This document shows, piece after piece, positions 2-13,276 of a DNA stretch of 63,879 bases (its first letter is position 1; each line of letters begins with the position of its first letter). The stretch lies in NCBI GenBank assembly GCA_905235515.1, contig CAJOLV010000009.1, positions 1 through 63,879 of the forward strand. The letters are read 5' to 3'. Position numbers and translations under genes: made by a program. Source of the stretch: an uncultured Bacilli bacterium (lineage in GTDB: Bacteria > Bacillota_I > Bacilli_A > RFN20 > CAG-826). The notes under the pieces were generated by a model, which was not told the origin of the DNA, did not search any database, and saw nothing but the letters and a program-made list of their open reading frames with translations.

Positions 2-232
2 AAAAGTCGTTCAACAATAACTGAGCACATTAATAATATTTTTACCGAAGGCGAATTAGAACAAATGACTTCCGTCGGAATTTCCGACCGAAGTAATCAT
101 AGGCCAGCAAAATTGTATAATCTTGATGTTGTTTTGGCGGTCGGTTTTGGCAATATATTGTTCTGCTCCTCAAACAAAAACTGGATTTTTTGCATCCAGT
201 CTTTGTCGATTATTAATAATCGATGTTGGTAA
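2..232 (+). pseudogene. Truncated RhuM-family (virulence RhuM/Fic-associated) gene fragment running off the left edge
   Basis: Frame 2 reads KSRSTITEHINNIFTEGELEQ...LYNLDVVLAVG, typical RhuM N-terminal motifs. The expected YRVxS continuation is absent, similarity ends near 145 and the frame stops at 230-232. Confidence 0.7.
174..206 (-). terminator. Intrinsic terminator of the serpin gene
   Basis: Stem ACAAAAACTGGA / TCCAGTCTTTGT just past the serpin stop codon. Confidence 0.6.
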
Positions 233-1523
233 CTGTCCCAGAGAATATCACATCGTTATCACTATTAGTAAGGATATAACCAAACTCTTTATCAACGATG
301 AATGTCTCGTAGACATCTGTATAAGGAATCTCGTCTGGTGCAGCCGCGCCCCCCATTGCCATCATGGTTATTGCAGCTCCTTCTATTCCTTTTTTATTTA
401 CATCGAGTTTAGCGATATGTCTGACTTCTTGACAATAAATCGCTATGTCCCCATTCACTAAATTAGTGAAATCACATTTATCAATATCAAATAAATCTTT
501 AACATCAAAATCCTCTATTAACATGTCTTTTAAATCTAAATCACATTCCGCTTTAAATTCTGGGAAATAACATTCTGTATGATAGATTTCTCTTTTAATA
601 TCATCTTTAATGATGAGATTATTTTTATCTAAGACATAATTAAGAGTGTCTTTATTAAAGATATCCTTTAAATCTTTTCCTTCATTTGGTTTAACAAAAT
701 AGAGGCGATAGCCATGATCTGTTTCAGTAAAGAAACTAGAATAATCATCAGTGGTAATAGTCTTACCTAAGAAATGATAGCCATCTAATAATTGTTTTTT
801 AGAAACACTTTTATCCCTATTAGTGAATTCTATATCTTTAGAGACATATTGTAAGTTATCTCCATAATCATTCCATAAATCTTTTAAATATAAAGTATTC
901 ATTAACACTAATAGAGTTAATTCTGAGAGTTTTAATTTTGGATTGATTAACCCTTTAGTTTTATCTTTGATAAATTCTTGAATTGCTTTATTAGAGTTTC
1001 TATTATCTTTATTAAAATCCGCGTGATAGGAATAACAATAATAATCATCTCTTAAAGCATCAAGTCCACTATCAAGGAGAGTGATATCATTATCAATCCA
1101 GATAGAGTTAGTTAATAATAGCTCAGATACTAATTTATCTTGGCTATAAATCTCTCTACTCATTTGATTAAAATACATCTTATAGAATTGATTAAATGAA
1201 TCATAATCAATATCAAATGCTTTTAATAATTCTTCTCTAGTATTATTAGAGGCACTTCTAATCGCTAAACCTAGACATAATTCAATAGATAAAGGAGATA
1301 AAGTAATATTACTATTCTCTTTAAATTCTCTTTTAACAAATGAATCACTTAATCGAGAGGAAAAACCTCTTAACTTATCTTTAAAAGATAAATAATCTTC
1401 ATCTAGATAGTTATATCTCTCAGTGTTTTTCACAGGCTCTCTTAAAAGAGTCATCTTATTAAGATGAGTATGACAACCACTAAGGATAAACACAGATGAT
1501 AAGATTAATAACTTTTTAAACAT
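213..1523 (-). CDS. Serpin (serine protease inhibitor), lipoprotein
   Basis: Lipobox ILSGC; serpin motifs NITLSPLSI, NSIWI, LMNTLYLKDLW, hinge VNKKGIEGAAIT and C-terminal FIVDKEFGYIL...FSGTV. Confidence 0.92.
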   Translation of the reverse strand: MFKKLLILSSVFILSGCHTHLNKMTLLREPVKNTERYNYLDEDYLSFKDKLRGFSSRLSDSFVKREFKENSNITLSPLSIELCLGLAIRSASNNTREELLKAFDIDYDSFNQFYKMYFNQMSREIYSQDKLVSELLLTNSIWIDNDITLLDSGLDALRDDYYCYSYHADFNKDNRNSNKAIQEFIKDKTKGLINPKLKLSELTLLVLMNTLYLKDLWNDYGDNLQYVSKDIEFTNRDKSVSKKQLLDGYHFLGKTITTDDYSSFFTETDHGYRLYFVKPNEGKDLKDIFNKDTLNYVLDKNNLIIKDDIKREIYHTECYFPEFKAECDLDLKDMLIEDFDVKDLFDIDKCDFTNLVNGDIAIYCQEVRHIAKLDVNKKGIEGAAITMMAMGGAAAPDEIPYTDVYETFIVDKEFGYILTNSDNDVIFSGTVTNIDY

Positions 1524-1555
1524 ATAAAATATTATACACTCATTAAGACTATATT

Positions 1556-1580
1556 AAAACTAGAGCCATATGACTCTAGT
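1556..1580 (-). terminator. Intrinsic terminator after surface protein gene 1603-2751
   Basis: ACTAGAG/CTCTAGT hairpin followed by a T-run on the minus strand. Confidence 0.55.
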
Positions 1581-1602
1581 CTTATTAATTAATAAATATT
1601 AA

Positions 1603-2751
1603 TTATTTAGATTCTTTCTTTCTCTTGATGAAGAAGAATCCACCTAACGCCACTAATGAGATTGTGGAGGCAACCACGATGATGACAACAATACTATTAG
1701 AATTATCATCAACAATTGGATTTATGCCAAAATTTGTTCCAGAAGAAGACCTTCCCAAAAAATTAGTTAACCCAGTATATTTGGCAATAATGTAATCATA
1801 CATTTCTTCTAAAGCATCTAACTCAGAGTGATCATAATCATCAGAGTTTTGCAAGTATGTCTTTGCGTTAGCACTTAAAGCGCTGAATGCAGTATTTTGA
1901 TTAGCCCAAGCAGTTGACATAGCGGAAGGAGCAGCACCAACTGGATTGTTTTTGGTATTTTCGCAAATAGTACTAATTGCGTTAACAAAATCTCTAGCAA
2001 ATTGAAGCGCTTCGTTTTCATATAAAACTTCAAAATAGTACTCATTGGAGCTACCTAATTTGACATATAAATTGAACGCCGCCGTGACATTAACCTCAAC
2101 GTTATTGTTGTCTTTTCTAGCTTGGATTCCATCTAAATCACTCGCACCACAAGAATCAACATCAAGCCAAATATCATTTCCATTAATGGTTAAAACTGCC
2201 TTGACTTCAACATCTTTTATAAAAGTGTAATTTAATAAACTCCATTGTGCGGCGTAACCATATTCAGAATAATTAGTAGTTTCAGACATTGCTGTGCCAG
2301 TTCCCCATGAATTTGCCTCTGTTTTTAAAACCGCAGATACTTCACCAGACGACCAAGTACTGCTTTCATCCCAGTTTGTAATTTTGCAAAGATTCTTTGA
2401 AGCAAAATCTTCTGTATAAGAACTCTTATTCCAACGTATGCCTGTGTTTCCAGGAGAGCAACGATAGAATTCAACAAGACTTAATCCAGTTATATCAATA
2501 GATACAACCCAATAATCTTCAGCTATTTTTTTAGCTTCTGTATAAGTATTAACGGTTCCGTTCCATGTTCCTAAACAAATACTTTCACTGTCCCAGCCAT
2601 CAAAAGCGCTACAATCTAAATAGAATGACTTATAGTTAGTTGCAGCACTTGCTGATTTAACTTCGCCTCTATTTGCCTTGATACCAGCAAATGCACCAAA
2701 GCCCATTGCAGCAGTGACACCTAAAGTGATAAAAACATTTTTAATTTTCAT
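1603..2751 (-). CDS. Membrane-anchored surface protein with putative carbohydrate (starch)-binding modules, non-catalytic
   Basis: Signal peptide ending ASA; Trp-rich beta modules resembling CBM26 and SusE/F types; helical domain ending YDYIIAKY..NFLGR; C-terminal TM plus KRKK tail. Paralog of 2989-4215. Confidence 0.7.
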   Translation of the reverse strand: MKIKNVFITLGVTAAMGFGAFAGIKANRGEVKSASAATNYKSFYLDCSAFDGWDSESICLGTWNGTVNTYTEAKKIAEDYWVVSIDITGLSLVEFYRCSPGNTGIRWNKSSYTEDFASKNLCKITNWDESSTWSSGEVSAVLKTEANSWGTGTAMSETTNYSEYGYAAQWSLLNYTFIKDVEVKAVLTINGNDIWLDVDSCGASDLDGIQARKDNNNVEVNVTAAFNLYVKLGSSNEYYFEVLYENEALQFARDFVNAISTICENTKNNPVGAAPSAMSTAWANQNTAFSALSANAKTYLQNSDDYDHSELDALEEMYDYIIAKYTGLTNFLGRSSSGTNFGINPIVDDNSNSIVVIIVVASTISLVALGGFFFIKRKKESK

Positions 2752-2822
2752 TCAGCATTCCTCCTCCAGAGAAAATATCGATGTATAGTAAAATGATCTG
2801 TGTCTCTATTATTTCAAGTCTT

Positions 2823-2935
2823 CACATAAAAATCCACCATTTTTATTTAAAATGGAAAAAAACACGATTTTTCTTTAAAATTTAAATTTTATTTTAGATT
2901 CAGTCTTAACATTTCAGTCGGTGGATTTTTTTGTG
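2823..2935. repeat. 16-bp inverted repeat pair (15/16 match) flanking an 81-bp AT-rich segment between divergent genes
   Basis: CACATAAAAATCCACC at 2823-2838 and GGTGGATTTTTTTGTG at 2920-2935. Confidence 0.85.
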
Positions 2936-2988
2936 CATCTATTATACATTAGAGCCATATATTAGCCTTTTTAAGGAGGAAATTTCTT

Positions 2989-4215
2989 ATGAGAAAAAGA
3001 AACATATTTGCAATAGCAATTGCTTCTATGACCTTAGCGTTAGGCGTTGGAGCAGGATTAAAAGTAAACAAAGTTCAAGAAGCTAAAGCTGCGTCAACCG
3101 TTCGCATGTATGTTGATGTTAGTTCTTGGTCAGAAGGAACATGGACAGATGCTAATGCATTAACATATGCTTATGTTGCTGGCGGAACAACAAGTGTTGC
3201 ATGGCCTGGTCAACAAATGACATTATCTTCAGTAACTGGTATCTATTACTTAGATATTTATGATGATGACACAACCGTTAATTTCTTGCGTGTCAATCCT
3301 AACGACAAAACAGGATCTGGCGTTTGGACAAGAGTTGTGAATGAATGGAAATCAGACATTTCATTGCCAAATGATTATTCATCAAAAAACGTGTTTAAAG
3401 TTTATCATTCTGGCTATGATGATTGGACCTATGCTGGTTCTTGGGATTATGTTGAACCATCGGTTTCTGACGGAGCTTACTTAAGAGGAGACTGGACCAA
3501 CGGATGGAGTACAGCCGGACAAAAAGCAATGACAGCAATTACAACTGGAACAAAATATTCAATCGACAACGTTGCCTTAGGCGCTGGCGGAACAGTTAAA
3601 ATGGTTACATTTTCTCGTGGCTATATTTCTTGGGCACAACCAGGAACAGTTTCTTCCACAAACAGCGACAAATTCCCTGCGGCTAAAGAGGAATCAATGA
3701 ATAATGTTACAGTTACAAACGCTGGTGTCTATACAATTGTTTTACAAAAAAACAACGATGTTTGGGATTATACATTCACTGGATCACTCCCTGCCGAATA
3801 TGTTGCCGCAGTTGAATTCTGCGATGATTTTAAAACATCAATGGGCAAGTATTGTCCAGTTACAGGAAGCGATGGTAATAAAGGTTTAGCAAAACTAGAA
3901 AGCGAATGGTCTGATTTTGCAAATAGATTTAATAATGCAAGCTTTGCAAATTCCCGCCCATATTTAACAGATGCAAATCCATCTGATGCAACTTTCATCG
4001 AATTCCAAGAAAGATATGATTCCATTATGGGCGATTATTACAGTTCCTTGAGCTCATACAATTTCTTAGGTAGAAGTTATACTCCAGCCAACACAACTAT
4101 TGAAATGGTAAACAATCAAACCAACACAGTCGCTGTTGTTGTGATTATTATCTCCACTATTTCTTTAGTGGCCTTAGGCGGATTTTTCTTCATTAAGAGA
4201 AAGAAAGAAAACTAA
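2989..4215 (+). CDS. Membrane-anchored surface protein with CBM26-like and SusE/F-like modules, non-catalytic
   Basis: SD AAGGAGG; signal peptide ending AKA; YAYV..AWPGQQMT..GIYYLDI starch-binding-module motif; YLRGDWTNGW module; helical domain ending NFLGR; TM plus KRKK tail. Confidence 0.75.
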   Translation: MRKRNIFAIAIASMTLALGVGAGLKVNKVQEAKAASTVRMYVDVSSWSEGTWTDANALTYAYVAGGTTSVAWPGQQMTLSSVTGIYYLDIYDDDTTVNFLRVNPNDKTGSGVWTRVVNEWKSDISLPNDYSSKNVFKVYHSGYDDWTYAGSWDYVEPSVSDGAYLRGDWTNGWSTAGQKAMTAITTGTKYSIDNVALGAGGTVKMVTFSRGYISWAQPGTVSSTNSDKFPAAKEESMNNVTVTNAGVYTIVLQKNNDVWDYTFTGSLPAEYVAAVEFCDDFKTSMGKYCPVTGSDGNKGLAKLESEWSDFANRFNNASFANSRPYLTDANPSDATFIEFQERYDSIMGDYYSSLSSYNFLGRSYTPANTTIEMVNNQTNTVAVVVIIISTISLVALGGFFFIKRKKEN

Positions 4216-4237
4216 TATATAGATTATATCAATAACG

Positions 4238-4266
4238 AAGTGGACCTCTTCAGAGGTCTACTTTTT
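4238..4266 (+). terminator. Intrinsic terminator
   Basis: AAGTGGACCTC-TTCA-GAGGTCTACTT followed by Ts. Confidence 0.8.
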
Positions 4267-4313
4267 ATATAGCCCACTACTATGGCTATAATCTAGGTAG
4301 TGAGGTGATATAT

Positions 4314-4913
4314 ATGGTGTATGCCTATTTAAGAGTGTCTACTGATACTCAAACTGTGGAGAACCAAAGATATGAAATTAATAGATATGTAGAATCTAAA
4401 GGACTAATTGTGGACCACTTTGTGGAAGAGAAGATATCTGGTGGAAAAGAAGTATCTAAAAGGAAATTAGGTAATCTGTTAAGAAGATTAAAGAAAGGAG
4501 ATATCTTAATTGCTAGTGAGATATCTAGACTCGGGAGATCGTTATATATGATTATGGATATCCTTAATCTTTGTATGGAAAAACAAGTACTAGTGTTCAC
4601 TATTAAGGATAACTTCCATTTAGGGGATGATATTGAGTCTAAAGTTTTAGCCTTTGCCTTCTCTTTATCCGCGGAGATAGAGAGGAGATTAATATCGCAA
4701 AGAACTAAAGAAGCTCTATTAAGAGTGAGAAGTGAAGGAAAAATATTAGGAAGGCCTAAAGGTAAGAAGAATAATCACTCTAAAGTATTAGATAGATTAG
4801 ATATCATCAAAGACTTATTTGATAAAGGGCTACCAATATCTAAAATTGCTAAAAGAGTAAAACTACACCCTAATTCGATATATAAATTAAATTTAAATAA
4901 ATTTAATGGCTAA
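4314..4913 (+). CDS. Serine recombinase/DNA invertase, Mpi (master invertase)-like family
   Basis: YAYLRVST catalytic Ser motif, QTVENQRYEI, SEISRLGR, TIKDNFHLGDDIESKVLAFAFSLSAEIERRLISQRTKEAL and GRPKG before a C-terminal HTH. Start moved from 4305 to the ATG at 4314 behind SD GAGGTG. Confidence 0.88.
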   Translation: MVYAYLRVSTDTQTVENQRYEINRYVESKGLIVDHFVEEKISGGKEVSKRKLGNLLRRLKKGDILIASEISRLGRSLYMIMDILNLCMEKQVLVFTIKDNFHLGDDIESKVLAFAFSLSAEIERRLISQRTKEALLRVRSEGKILGRPKGKKNNHSKVLDRLDIIKDLFDKGLPISKIAKRVKLHPNSIYKLNLNKFNG

Positions 4914-4917
4914 TTTT

Positions 4918-4944
4918 TTAGCACTCTACTTGACTAAGTGCTAA
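4918..4944 (+). promoter_or_regulatory. CIRCE element (HrcA operator) overlapping the htpG promoter
   Basis: TTAGCACTC-N9-AAGTGCTAA, one mismatch to the TTAGCACTC-N9-GAGTGCTAA consensus; TTGACT (4930-4935) and TAAAAT (4952-4957) promoter hexamers. Confidence 0.9.
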
Positions 4945-5003
4945 TTGCGATTAAAATTAATAATGAAACTAGTCCTCTCCTTGAACTAGCGAAAGGAGTT
5001 TTT

Positions 5004-6923
5004 ATGAAAGAAATTAAAAAATTTGAAACAGAAAGTAAAGAATTACTCAACTTAATGATTAATTCGATTTATTCCAACAATGAGATTTTTTTAAGAGAAT
5101 TAATCTCTAATGCCTCTGATGCGATTGATAAATATAGATATTTATCATTAACTAGCCAGGGCCAAGTGCCATTATTAGAGCATTCTATTTCTATCTCATT
5201 AGATAAAAAGAATCGTACTATTACTATTTCTGATAACGGCATTGGTATGTCTAAAGATGATTTAATCAATAATTTAGGTACGATTGCTAGAAGTGGTTCT
5301 AAAGATTTTATGAACAAAATCAAAGAAGCAAAAGAAAAGAAAGACTTAGATATTATTGGCCAATTTGGTGTTGGCTTCTATAGTGCTTTTATGGTTGCTT
5401 CTAAGATTGATGTTTTAACTAAGACTTATGATGGCCAAGCTTATCTATTCTCTTCTGATGGAGAAGATAGCTATTCTATTGAAGAAGCGGATAAAAAAGA
5501 TAACGGCACTTCTATCACTTTATATTTAAAGAAGTCTAGTAAAGAGATTGATTATGATAAATATCTAGAAGAATATGAAATCAAAGATTTAGTGAAACGC
5601 TACAGCGACTACATCAGATATCCAATTAAAATGATGTGCACTACTACTAAACCAAAACTAGATAAAGATGGTAATGAGATTAAAGGTGAAACTGAGCAAG
5701 TTAATGAAGAACAAACCCTTAATTCAATGATTCCTCTTTGGAAGAAAAATAAAAAAGATGTCAGTGAAGAAGAATTAAATAAATTCTATAAAGATAAATT
5801 TATGGATTATGAAGATCCTCTTATCTCCTTATTTATTAATGTCGATGGAAAGATTACTTATAATTCATTATTATTCATCCCTTCTCATATCCCTTATAAC
5901 TTATATAGTGAAAATTATGAAAAAGGATTACAGTTATATTCAAAAGGTGTCTTTATTAAAGACAAAGCCCCTGAACTTATCCCAGATTATTTAAAATTTG
6001 TCAAAGGTTTAGTGGATTCTCCAGACCTCAATTTAAATATTTCTCGTGAGATTTTACAACATTCACCAATCATGAGTAAAATTGCTGAAAATGTTGAGAA
6101 AAAGATCGTTGATAAATTAAAAGAAGTCTTAAAAGAAGATAAAGAAAAATATATTCAATTTTGGAAAAACTTTGGAGAGCATATTAAATATGGTATTTAC
6201 TCTACTTATGGAAGTAAAAAAGAACTCCTTCAAGATATCTTATTATTCCATTCTTTAAATAATAATGATGAATATATCACTCTTGATGAATATAAAAATA
6301 AGATGTCTAAAGAGCAAAAAGCTATTTATTATGTCTCTGGAGAAAATCTTGATGCAATCAAGTTATTACCACAGATAGAAAGATATAAAAAGCTTGGTTA
6401 TGATGTTTTATTACTCGATCAAAGAATTGATGAATTCGCTATCATGATGATGCACGATTATGAGAAGGTAGAATTTAAATCTATTACTGATGATGCAACT
6501 AATGAAATCAGTAAAGAAGAGCAAGAAAAGATTGATAACACTACTGCGGATAATAAGAGATTACTCGATAATATCAAAGAGGGATTAAAAGACGAAATAG
6601 ATGATGTGGTTATTTCCTCTAAATTAGTCGATTCACCACTTTGTTTAAGCACAAAAGATGGTCTCTCCTTAGAAATGGAAAAGACATTAAATGATCAACC
6701 TGGTAATGAAGAAAAAGTGAAAGCTAAAAAAGTATTAGAGATTAATCCAGATCACGAATTATTTAAAGCCTTTTCCTCTATTCAAGAAAATGATGATTTA
6801 GTTAAAGATTATGCATCTATATTATTAGATGAGGCAATGTTATTAGAAGGTAGAGAAATCGCTAATAAAAAAGAGTTTGTCAGAAAACTCAATGAACTAA
6901 TGATTAAAGCGTTTTCTAAATAA
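5004..6923 (+). CDS. htpG: Molecular chaperone HtpG (Hsp90)
   Basis: IYSNNEIFLRELISNASDA, DNGIGM, LGTIARSG and IGQFGVGFYSAF motifs. True start is probably the ATG at 5004 after SD AAGGAG. Confidence 0.97.
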   Translation: MKEIKKFETESKELLNLMINSIYSNNEIFLRELISNASDAIDKYRYLSLTSQGQVPLLEHSISISLDKKNRTITISDNGIGMSKDDLINNLGTIARSGSKDFMNKIKEAKEKKDLDIIGQFGVGFYSAFMVASKIDVLTKTYDGQAYLFSSDGEDSYSIEEADKKDNGTSITLYLKKSSKEIDYDKYLEEYEIKDLVKRYSDYIRYPIKMMCTTTKPKLDKDGNEIKGETEQVNEEQTLNSMIPLWKKNKKDVSEEELNKFYKDKFMDYEDPLISLFINVDGKITYNSLLFIPSHIPYNLYSENYEKGLQLYSKGVFIKDKAPELIPDYLKFVKGLVDSPDLNLNISREILQHSPIMSKIAENVEKKIVDKLKEVLKEDKEKYIQFWKNFGEHIKYGIYSTYGSKKELLQDILLFHSLNNNDEYITLDEYKNKMSKEQKAIYYVSGENLDAIKLLPQIERYKKLGYDVLLLDQRIDEFAIMMMHDYEKVEFKSITDDATNEISKEEQEKIDNTTADNKRLLDNIKEGLKDEIDDVVISSKLVDSPLCLSTKDGLSLEMEKTLNDQPGNEEKVKAKKVLEINPDHELFKAFSSIQENDDLVKDYASILLDEAMLLEGREIANKKEFVRKLNELMIKAFSK

Positions 6924-8917: not shown

Positions 8918-9852
8918 AGGGAGTTAGCCTCCTTAATCTTTTTATTCTTAAAGTGCTTTTTAATCTTCATTCCATATTTCTTTTGTAGATAAGGCACTCC
9001 GAGGAAGATTGCTACCACTACTGCGGAAAGCATCTTTAATAATTCGGTATTAAGTCCGAGGAACACGACTGTTTGGAAGATGATGAAGTAGATGATACTT
9101 CCTATTACCACACCTGTTAATCTAGCAAAGAAGTTAGGCGATATCTTAGAGACTATTGCTGTACCGATCACGACTGCGCATAGGCCAATAACAATTGCCC
9201 CTCTTCCCATATTGACATCAGCAAAGCCTTGATATTGACTTAAGAGAGCGCCCGCTAAAGCGACTAATCCATTAGAGATCATTAAGCCTAAGACAATATT
9301 AAATTTAGTGTTAATACCTTGGGCTTTTGACATATGAGGATTATTACCTGTCGCTCTAATTGAGGCCCCTAGTTCTGTGCCAAAGAAGAGATAGAGTAAG
9401 CCAATTATTGCTAAAGCAATCAAACCAATTTTCCATAAGGCATCACCAATGTTTAATTGAGATAATAGGACATAATATTGTCTCACTGATATGGCGATAT
9501 TAGATTTACCATGTGATATCACTAAATTAATAGACCAGAGAGTTAATTGGGTGAGTATTCCAGCTAATATCGGTGGGATGCCTAAAAAGGCATGTAATAA
9601 ACCAGTAATCAATCCACACGCTAATCCAGCGGCGAAGCTAACTAATAAAGCGAGAAAGAAATTACCTCCATTAGTGATAATAATCGCTGAGACTATTCCA
9701 CCAGTAGCAAAACTACCATCCACTGTTAAATCAGGAATATCTAATACTTTATATGTGATATAGACACCAATAGCCATAATCCCCCAGATGATTCCAAGAG
9801 ATATCGCGCTTGGTAAACTTGATAAATAATTTAACATATTATTCCATTTCAA
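8914..9852 (-). CDS. ABC transporter permease (aromatic amino acid-type)
   Basis: PDLTVDGSF, RATGNN and QYQGFADVNMG motifs; multiple TM segments. Confidence 0.92.
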   Translation of the reverse strand: MKWNNMLNYLSSLPSAISLGIIWGIMAIGVYITYKVLDIPDLTVDGSFATGGIVSAIIITNGGNFFLALLVSFAAGLACGLITGLLHAFLGIPPILAGILTQLTLWSINLVISHGKSNIAISVRQYYVLLSQLNIGDALWKIGLIALAIIGLLYLFFGTELGASIRATGNNPHMSKAQGINTKFNIVLGLMISNGLVALAGALLSQYQGFADVNMGRGAIVIGLCAVVIGTAIVSKISPNFFARLTGVVIGSIIYFIIFQTVVFLGLNTELLKMLSAVVVAIFLGVPYLQKKYGMKIKKHFKNKKIKEANSL

Positions 9853-12358: not shown

Positions 12359-13276
12359 TTAGATGTTATTTAAGAATTCATCAATTTCTTGATTAGATGG
12401 AGCGACATGTATCGCTCCTTTCTTTTGTGTGGCTAATCCGCCAGCGACATTGGCTCTCTTAAGAGCGGTGATGATATTATCATCGTCATTCATATCTAAA
12501 CCTTGATCAACACTATAGAGGAAATAGGAATAGAAAGCATCCCCTGCACCTGTTGTGTCTACTGGTTTAAGTGGATATGAACTAACTTTAATAAATTTAT
12601 CTTTGCTATAGAAGATAGAGCCATCTTTTCCAAGGGTCACTACTGCGATTTGTTTATCATTTAATAATGCTTTTAGACCTTTTAAGACATCTTTTTGATT
12701 AGATAGTAATTCTAATTCTTCTTCAGTGAATTTAATGATATCCGCGCATTTAAGGGATTTTAAGAATATATCTTTGGCTTCTTTTTCACTTTTAAAGATG
12801 TCATCACGATAATTGACATCAAAAGAGATTAAGCAATTGTAATTATTATGAATATACTCAATAGCGGAATAATAGAAATCTCTCCCTTGTTGATACGAGA
12901 GCATTAATGAACCGATATGAACAATGGAGATTTTTGATAAATCAAATTTCTTTAATTGATTGATATCTAATAGATAGTCACTACCGCTGTCTCTTTTAAA
13001 TCTAAATGATCTTTCACCATTATCAAGAGTAACAATTGCTTGAGTAGTTTCTCTACCTTTAATCACATCAATATAAGCATTAGGTAATTTCTTTTTTGCA
13101 AAATCTAATAATAGATGACCATATTCATCTGGTGATACCGCTCCATAGAAGGAGGCTTCACCATTAAAATGGGCAATATTACTTGCTACGTTAAAAGGCG
13201 CTCCACCAGGATAGGCTGTCTTTTTATCACCTTCAATAAATATATCTACTAAGATTTCTCCAACTGATAACACCAT
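12359..13276 (-). CDS. PfkB-family carbohydrate kinase, probable fructokinase
   Basis: PGGAPFNVA, SFDVNYR and VDTTGAGDAF motifs; last gene of the fructan locus. Confidence 0.9.
   Translation of the reverse strand: MVLSVGEILVDIFIEGDKKTAYPGGAPFNVASNIAHFNGEASFYGAVSPDEYGHLLLDFAKKKLPNAYIDVIKGRETTQAIVTLDNGERSFRFKRDSGSDYLLDINQLKKFDLSKISIVHIGSLMLSYQQGRDFYYSAIEYIHNNYNCLISFDVNYRDDIFKSEKEAKDIFLKSLKCADIIKFTEEELELLSNQKDVLKGLKALLNDKQIAVVTLGKDGSIFYSKDKFIKVSSYPLKPVDTTGAGDAFYSYFLYSVDQGLDMNDDDNIITALKRANVAGGLATQKKGAIHVAPSNQEIDEFLNNI

Follow-up and report, generated by a model that had tools for sequence, protein, structure and literature searches.

A candidate 81-bp promoter inverton between two divergent surface-protein genes, beside an Mpi-family recombinase gene, in an uncultured Bacilli genome

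Can a bacterium with a small genome choose between two surface proteins by flipping a piece of DNA of only 81 bp? The question is raised by the left end of contig CAJOLV010000009.1 (C9) in assembly GCA_905235515.1 (G000) of an uncultured Bacilli bacterium, where the surface-protein genes surfA and surfB diverge from a spacer that holds an inverted repeat. The gene order there is serpin (−), surfA (−), a 237-bp spacer, surfB (+), a hairpin with a T-run, a serine recombinase gene (+) and htpG. The window, meaning the whole stretch of DNA that was analysed, is this entire 63,879-bp contig; the assembly comprises 1,200,340 bp with 34% G+C and is 92% complete. An earlier note had proposed a phase-variation switch at this locus. 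Its gene arrangement (divergent paralogous surface genes, the 237-bp spacer, the recombinase gene next) proved correct at every coordinate, and the 15/16 inverted repeat around 81 bp is present as it had been described. We consider the proposal that the spacer holds a local promoter inverton of 81 bp, toggling two surface proteins that bind alpha-glucans, to be evenly balanced between right and wrong. The features on which it turns are the following.

1603 to 2751, minus strand: surfA, an open reading frame (ORF) for a surface protein of 382 amino acids without a Pfam family
2752 to 2988, no strand: divergent spacer of 237 bp with the candidate switch inside, delimited by the ORF borders
2823 to 2838, no strand: arm A of the inverted repeat, from the repeat scan
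2839 to 2919, no strand: 81-bp segment bounded by the arms and putatively invertible, from the repeat scan
2853 to 2881, plus strand: promoter-like site TGGAAA-17-TAAAAT, with 9 of 12 consensus matches, facing surfB as assembled
2920 to 2935, no strand: arm T of the inverted repeat, from the repeat scan
2989 to 4215, plus strand: surfB, an ORF for a surface protein of 408 amino acids
4314 to 4913, plus strand: small serine recombinase of 199 amino acids, assigned to the Mpi family; the ORF is open from GTG 4305

Is the recombinase of a kind that inverts DNA? By curated model it is an Mpi-family serine invertase. It matches Pfam Resolvase (PF00239; E = 1.6e-31) and, over model positions 1–191 of 203, NCBIfam NF009949, the equivalog model of the master DNA invertase Mpi family (E = 8.3e-82), with 273.8 bits against a cutoff of 272, a thin margin. 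Together with 56–59% identity to NCBI-named Mpi-family proteins of Paludibacteraceae, Porphyromonas and a Clostridiales metagenome-assembled genome, this match supports the likeness to Mpi that the earlier note had read from motifs. The catalytic serine lies within YLRVSTDTQ, and R10, S12, R75 and R78 of the catalytic domain are invariant in an alignment of 10 family members (A1). The putative C-terminal helix-turn-helix (residues 164–194) aligns with those of family members and scores 19.8 bits with HTH_7, below the Pfam cutoff of 23.8. In alignment A1 the putative recognition helix reads HPNS/TIYK in the Bacilli set and HRVTLYR in Bacteroidales members; because these helices differ, the enzyme is expected to recognise another target. 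Among solved structures, the closest are 4m6f and 3uj3 (E ~1e-12), both DNA-invertase entries, and gamma-delta resolvase. All 9 aligned relatives begin at the methionine equivalent to ATG 4314, a GAGGTG ribosome-binding site lies 7 nt upstream of this codon, and the true start is probably here, giving 199 residues. The gene is present in single copy in G000, 1.4 kb from the segment.

Does the spacer offer such an enzyme a substrate? The arms, CACATAAAAATCCACC at 2823–2838 and GGTGGATTTTTTTGTG at 2920–2935, are complementary at 15 of 16 positions and lie 81 nt apart. Arm A and the next 10 nt form site A (2824–2848), ACATAAAAAT-CCACC-ATTTTTATTT, a near-perfect dyad around an asymmetric 5-bp centre. 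In site T (2910–2934), CATTTCAGTC-GGTGG-ATTTTTTTGT, the outer half alone matches; the inner half of arm T, TTTCAGTC, is a non-consensus half-site that has 6 of 8 bases in common with its counterpart TTTCNNTC in G001, a genome of the same genus. The two centres, CCACC and GGTGG, are mutually reverse complementary, with 86 bp separating them. A serine invertase needs inverted sites that each have two half-sites flanking an asymmetric centre, and the arms read as such sites. An imperfect 28-nt tandem repeat (2828–2855 / 2856–2883; 79%) places a second, degenerate copy of site A inside the segment, which might serve as a third site for binding or else record past slippage. The single-strand fold of the inverted repeat (z −3.6) merely restates the repeat.

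Could such a repeat simply be an accident of AT-rich DNA, without function? For repeats defined by 16-nt arms, at most 1 mismatch and a gap of 30–300 nt, the genome holds 17 pairs, the window 1, and shuffled windows a mean of 0.65 (40 shuffles), which is the chance expectation. Against this stands what was kept in G001, whose recombinase is 72% identical. Here the recombinase gene and two surface genes lie on one strand, followed across a 416-bp spacer by another surface gene on the other strand. The spacer carries the arms GACATAAAAATCCACC ... GGTGGATTTTTTTGTT with, again, exactly 81 nt between them; the highest-ranking inverted repeat in it is built on the core found in the window, …ACATAAAAATCCACC / GGTGGATTTTTTTGT…, and the 21-nt block ACATAAAAATCCACCATTTTT at arm A is identical in both genomes. 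The surroundings, in contrast, have been randomised: the flanks from arm to gene are unalignable (z −0.9 to 1.5), as is the segment interior in either orientation (P 0.28–0.60), and the distances from arm to start codon are 53 and 71 nt in the window and 77 and 228 nt in G001, while the gap from arm to arm is fixed. The unalignable flanks also argue against G001 having received the whole spacer by recent transfer. Since the arms, a few inner bases and their spacing were kept in G001 while everything around them drifted, we conclude that they are held by selection, and this conservation in a sister species raises the repeat above chance. A search for the arm pair with a gap of 70–95 nt, in one genome per species across 185,579 species, returned 82 loci, only one of which, that of G001, encodes relatives of these proteins; the other 81 encode none and were set aside as chance occurrences. 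Because of the conservation in G001, we regard chance as excluded and leave it a minimal residual probability. That the repeat is a selected feature tied to the recombinase is supported by these sequence comparisons.

How closely is the motif tied to the recombinase? Within 2 mismatches, the 16-mer occurs in G000 at the two arms and at one unrelated site on contig C22; within 1 mismatch, the motif occurs at the two arms and at a lone 1-mismatch site on contig C1, and the reversed control also gave one. In G001 the two arms stand alone at 0 mismatches, and looser matches number 21 against 15 in the reversed-pattern control. Genome-wide scanning for further repeat pairs, a check that the earlier note had named, yielded one pair only in G000 and likewise in G001. 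In G002 (same genus, 86% complete), neither the recombinase nor the motif was found; recombinase and motif thus co-occur in two of the three congeners searched and are both missing from the third. With orthologs defined by at least 55% identity, a pattern search of 10 other ortholog-bearing genomes recovered the arm pair in G001 only, and inverted-repeat scans near the remaining orthologs gave nothing convincing. A metagenome collection contained no arm pair with a gap of 76–86 nt. It contained one locus for the recombinase protein, L120, which belongs to the species of L003; the L120 contig begins only 117 nt ahead of the surface gene and therefore shows no switch region.

Selection on the arms need not mean recombination. 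They may be operators at which nothing flips, with a DNA-binding protein regulating the divergent genes and possibly looping the 86 bp between the site centres; this protein would be the recombinase, acting through its helix-turn-helix alone, or an unrelated regulator. Tn3-type resolvases repress at res. The dyad symmetry of site A suits an operator, as do the arms and spacing conserved in G001, the identical arrangement of both genomes and the absence of the second orientation from contigs, and the three site-like elements within ~110 bp (2824–2848, the degenerate 2856–2883 and 2910–2934) recall a res site. However, the catalytic domain is intact and the invertase-family model was passed, arm-to-gene distances vary while the arm-to-arm distance is conserved, and the asymmetric inverted centres have no obvious role for a repressor. 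Moreover, the motif is absent upstream of the other surface-family paralogs in G000 and G001, which makes a family-wide operator unlikely. On balance we consider the operator explanation improbable, although it deserves to be taken seriously.

If the segment is to act as a switch, does it hold a promoter? The earlier note had found no clear one inside it; a modest consensus match can now be reported. In a simple weight-matrix scan, which measures consensus match only, TGGAAA-17-TAAAAT scores 8.6, the best value of the whole spacer, compared with a 90th percentile of 7.6 for random 81-nt pieces of this genome. The same scan found nothing comparable for either gene in the spacer outside the segment. 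Flipped in silico, the promoter-like site would face surfA. Taken as sequence evidence, a promoter inside the segment is suggestive but not coherent.

Transcription from within the segment would also be needed by a further explanation, in which the arms are leader elements, remnants of an inverted duplication that gave rise to the paralogs. A weak Shine–Dalgarno-like GGTGG, 6 nt, an ATG or TTG and a very short upstream ORF would then modulate translation or mRNA stability. All four arms indeed show GGTGG-ATTTTT-ATG/TTG followed by a short frame: in the window, the ATG of arm A is followed by TGA and the TTG of arm T opens a 51-amino-acid frame, and the frames of the G001 arms have 7 and 3 codons. 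However, this explanation requires transcription to start inside the segment in both directions, where only one promoter-like site is present, and the upstream ORFs differ in length and sequence. It also leaves the exact 81-bp spacing, the inner-side dyad of site A and the linkage to the recombinase unexplained. We rate a leader role as quite unlikely.

Has the segment been caught in both orientations? Four sequencing runs were examined as Logan contigs; X1, probably the source, covers the region in full, and three animal-gut runs cover small parts of it. The X1 contigs break at arm A into 1400–2836 (depth 21.1), a 45-nt contig at 2807–2851 (35.7) and 2822–5100 (19.7), with neighbours overlapping by 30 nt. 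This pattern fits a second haplotype that shares just the site-A block 2807–2851 and differs on both sides. A mixture of orientations was considered for these breaks and rejected, as the break points computed for it (2838, 2809–2857 and 2828) do not match. Among the X4 contigs, one stops 18 nt into the segment beside arm A, with one extra A there, another has 18 unaligned letters inside arm T, and 2856–2919 is not covered; depth is low, and a second arm-A haplotype is present. These contig ends lie where an assembly graph of 31-letter words would fork if one inner end were joined to both arms, which is no more than a hint. An attempt to call orientation from the segment interior was also discarded: the global score difference, 0 versus 10, carries no weight when the interiors align neither way.

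Which proteins would the segment choose between? As paralogs, surfA and surfB align from end to end in BLASTP with 28% identity (E = 1e-25), and their C-terminal transmembrane anchors are nearly identical and lack LPXTG. AlphaFold models, for which the underlying alignments were shallow (16 and 14 sequences) and the mean predicted local distance difference test score (pLDDT) was 70.9 for surfA and 74.2 for surfB, show in both proteins a signal peptide, two beta-sandwich domains, a four-helix bundle and a transmembrane helix. In Foldseek, the surfB model matched SusF (4fe9; E = 4.5e-5), SusE (4fem; 9.9e-4) and Sas6 (7uwu; 2.1e-3), and also CBM25; surfB further scores 15.1 bits with Pfam CBM26, below the cutoff, and its Atlas leads are CBM26, X25 and SusE/F. 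The surfA model has no fold match at E ≤ 0.001, and its best local matches, to pullulanase and CBM41 alpha-glucan modules, are weak (probability 0.93–0.99). Among the G001 paralogs, Pfam detects SusF_SusE (E = 9.4e-11) and CBM26 (28.4 bits against a cutoff of 28.1). Based on the predicted models, the label of a non-catalytic carbohydrate-binding surface protein is firm for surfB, through the SusF, SusE, Sas6 and CBM25 folds; for surfA, the other half of what the earlier note had claimed, it is tentative only.

The beta-sandwich domains of surfB resemble the starch-binding modules of SusE and SusF of Bacteroides thetaiotaomicron and Sas6 of Ruminococcus bromii, and the window proteins share with these surface display without a catalytic domain. 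They differ in being anchored by a C-terminal transmembrane helix, in place of the lipid or cohesin–dockerin attachment of those proteins, and in carrying an added four-helix bundle of no known family. This bundle (surfA residues 243–324, surfB residues 269–353) matched no Pfam family; it is family-wide, lies just outside the membrane anchor and contains an invariant cysteine.

The 3′ ends that code for the two anchors (1581–1669 / 4152–4240) form an 89-nt inverted repeat, 76–81% alike, and a counterpart exists in G346, where the anchor-coding ends (locus L140, 6795–6906 / 13101–13212) form a 112-nt inverted repeat of 88%. A strain in run X2 whose recombinase gene is ~97% identical loses its similarity to the window precisely left of 4151. 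Surface-gene bodies seem to have been swapped between strains at the conserved anchor. Orthologs of the recombinase are patchy: samples of the order and of the family have them in 11 of 301 and 13 of 401 genomes, and the nearest relatives in 3 of 41; the surface family occurs in 10 of those 41.

Might the recombinase, then, serve another rearrangement, namely an exchange of the anchor ends or the resolution or movement of a mobile element, with the spacer repeat being incidental? The repeats at the gene ends in the window and in G346, the X2 strain and the patchy distribution are all in keeping with this. However, flipping the whole two-gene block would change nothing, and paralogy together with ordinary homologous exchange accounts for the likeness of the anchors. 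No transposase, second recombinase copy or composition break was seen near the gene, and the conserved arms would go unexplained. This alternative seems to us distinctly improbable, more so than a leader role.

How would the candidate inverton work? We propose that the Mpi-family invertase (4314–4913) would bind as dimers to two ~25-bp crossover sites, A (2824–2848, centre CCACC) and T (2910–2934, centre GGTGG), and that the 81-bp segment would be flipped when strands are exchanged at these centres. This segment carries the only decent promoter-like element of the spacer, which would drive surfB in the assembled orientation and surfA in the inverted one. Each cell would thereby display one of two alternative alpha-glucan (starch-type) binding surface proteins. 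We infer enzyme–site binding, inversion of the segment, the identity of the promoter and the toggling of expression from the locus as described. In favour of the switch that the earlier note had suggested are the Mpi-family assignment, the selected repeat, the uniqueness of the motif, the co-occurrence of recombinase and motif, the linkage of the recombinase gene to surface-family genes, the anatomy of the sites and the fixed spacing of the arms; what did not materialise is an inverted joint in the contigs of the four runs, and the promoter is modest.

Several observations weigh against an inverton. Judged by their number, such repeats are no more frequent than chance predicts, and site T is without a recognisable inner half-site. 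Read toward its gene, each arm resembles a weak ribosome-binding site and start codon, which fits a leader. The promoter evidence is modest and inconsistent: the window element (8.6) points from arm A to arm T, while the best in-segment site of G001, GTGACA-17-CATATT (7.6), points in the opposite direction relative to the arms. Strand-changing joints over 2839–2919 numbered 0 among those listed in the contigs of the four runs, which is weak counter-evidence, as contigs drop rare variants. In both locus-bearing genomes (two of two), each outer arm variant goes with the same inner end, an outcome that free switching makes half as probable as no switching does. Finally, 81 bp demands a very tight DNA loop, and the substrates of Bacteroides fragilis Mpi are reportedly longer, at ~170–230 bp.

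Where else does this recombinase occur? Among 17 ortholog-bearing genomes, the contig ends within 350 nt upstream in 8, leaving the context of 9 readable. The recombinase gene lies directly beside a surface-family gene in four of these nine (G000, G001, G346 and G472, the last being locus L003), and three other orthologs adjoin yebC. Closer relatives of the recombinase, at 71–83% identity, are also on record; the recombinases P0003 and P0009 appear to lie on contigs of 5,702 and 10,470 nt together with the surface proteins P0140 and P0133/P0150. The cut contigs (L114–L119, L141 and L144, from G055, G216, G106, G139, G021, G189, G456 and G364) end 40–350 nt upstream of the recombinase gene, and in L115, L116 and L119 the cut neighbour is a divergent ORF beginning MSDY/F…. 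The 87-amino-acid ORF divergent from the G216 ortholog has no Pfam family; it may conceivably be a methyltransferase specificity tail. The cut-off neighbour may belong to another repeat-rich, possibly invertible locus of the same enzyme clade.

In L140 (G346, contig C67, 6781–13226), surface-family genes lie on both sides of the recombinase gene (65% identity). An inverted repeat of 23 nt, weak at 74% (9208–9230 / 9374–9396), brackets 143 nt there, within which TTGACA-17-TATATA, read by eye, faces an 816-amino-acid gene; its arms have an A-tract half-site flavour in common with those of the window. L127 (G009, contig C14; 3399–3700 and 4544–4914) has two giant surface genes, paralogs whose ~117-nt leaders are nearly identical, and a perfect TTGACA-17-TATAAT promoter precedes one giant gene and not the other. 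A homology search found no recombinase ortholog in G009. The L120 contig (1–117) begins exactly at the first base of this leader.

The remaining features of the left end are these; the serpin gene directly adjoins the surface-gene pair.

213 to 1523, minus strand: serpin of 436 amino acids with a lipoprotein-type signal peptide (…LSGC); Pfam Serpin, E = 9e-41
4241 to 4268, plus strand: hairpin then T-run 3′ of surfB, terminator-like, read by eye and unlisted by the motif scan
4264 to 4292, plus strand: promoter-like site TTTATA-17-TATAAT 5′ of the recombinase gene, with 10 of 12 consensus matches

No Rfam family was found in 1500–5100 at E ≤ 1, and 1400–5100 has no second copy in its own genome apart from the anchor repeat.

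How would such a system compare with known inverters? Hin acts in Salmonella flagellar phase variation and Gin on the G segment of phage Mu. Like Hin, Gin, Cin and Pin, the window enzyme is a small serine recombinase with a C-terminal helix-turn-helix, here putative, encoded beside its putative substrate, and as with Hin and Gin its crossover sites would be ~25 bp long, with two half-sites and an asymmetric centre. In hixL and hixR one half-site is common and the other imperfect, a pattern that the window sites may resemble. The recombinase is, however, only 20–30% identical to Hin- and Gin-type enzymes. Hin-type systems flip ~1–3 kb that include enzyme or tail-fibre genes and require a Fis-bound enhancer, whereas the 81-bp segment leaves little room for such an enhancer.

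The window arms have no known likeness in sequence to the repeat of B. fragilis Mpi, and the putative recognition helices differ likewise (HPNS/TIYK against HRVTLYR of Bacteroidales members). The enzyme itself is of the same family by NF009949, and in both systems short inverted repeats surround a small promoter segment, here a candidate, before surface-structure genes. Excerpts of two reports (PMC4747536, PMC10403206) describe Mpi (Coyne et al. 2003) as acting on the invertible promoters of capsular-polysaccharide and other surface loci, and an excerpt of the former presents it as a master enzyme, flipping 13 distant regions. In contrast, the window system has one site pair per genome (G000, 92% complete, and G001), beside the enzyme gene, and for this reason master, multi-locus action is inapplicable to its enzyme. 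Its segment is also very short (81 bp) and conserved in length, its host is a 1.2-Mb uncultured Bacilli member, and the output would be a two-gene choice, not on/off, with inversion here being a proposal. In an excerpt of a survey of a defined gut community, Bacillus-like Firmicutes have a median of 0 invertons per genome (PMC11892184). No paper naming RF39, a group to which the host may or may not belong, was among those that a literature search on DNA inversion listed.

A more ambitious claim can be built on these comparisons: a working mini-inverton that is among the smallest segments known to be flipped by a serine invertase (81 bp, 86 bp between centres), serving as a two-way selector of starch-binding adhesins under a locally acting Mpi branch in a 1.2-Mb uncultured gut Bacilli, within a clade repeatedly recruited to hypervariable surface loci across the order. 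We consider this possible but somewhat doubtful.

What would the locus mean for its host and for the enzyme family? If the arms are operators or leader elements, this is an ordinary regulated surface-gene pair. If the inverton is real, Mpi-type phase variation would extend to tiny-genome uncultured Bacilli of animal guts and would reach nutrient-capture proteins, namely starch binders, beyond capsules and fimbriae. The short, length-conserved segment would then offer a natural and compact substrate with which to study the pairing of sites 86 bp apart by a small serine invertase.

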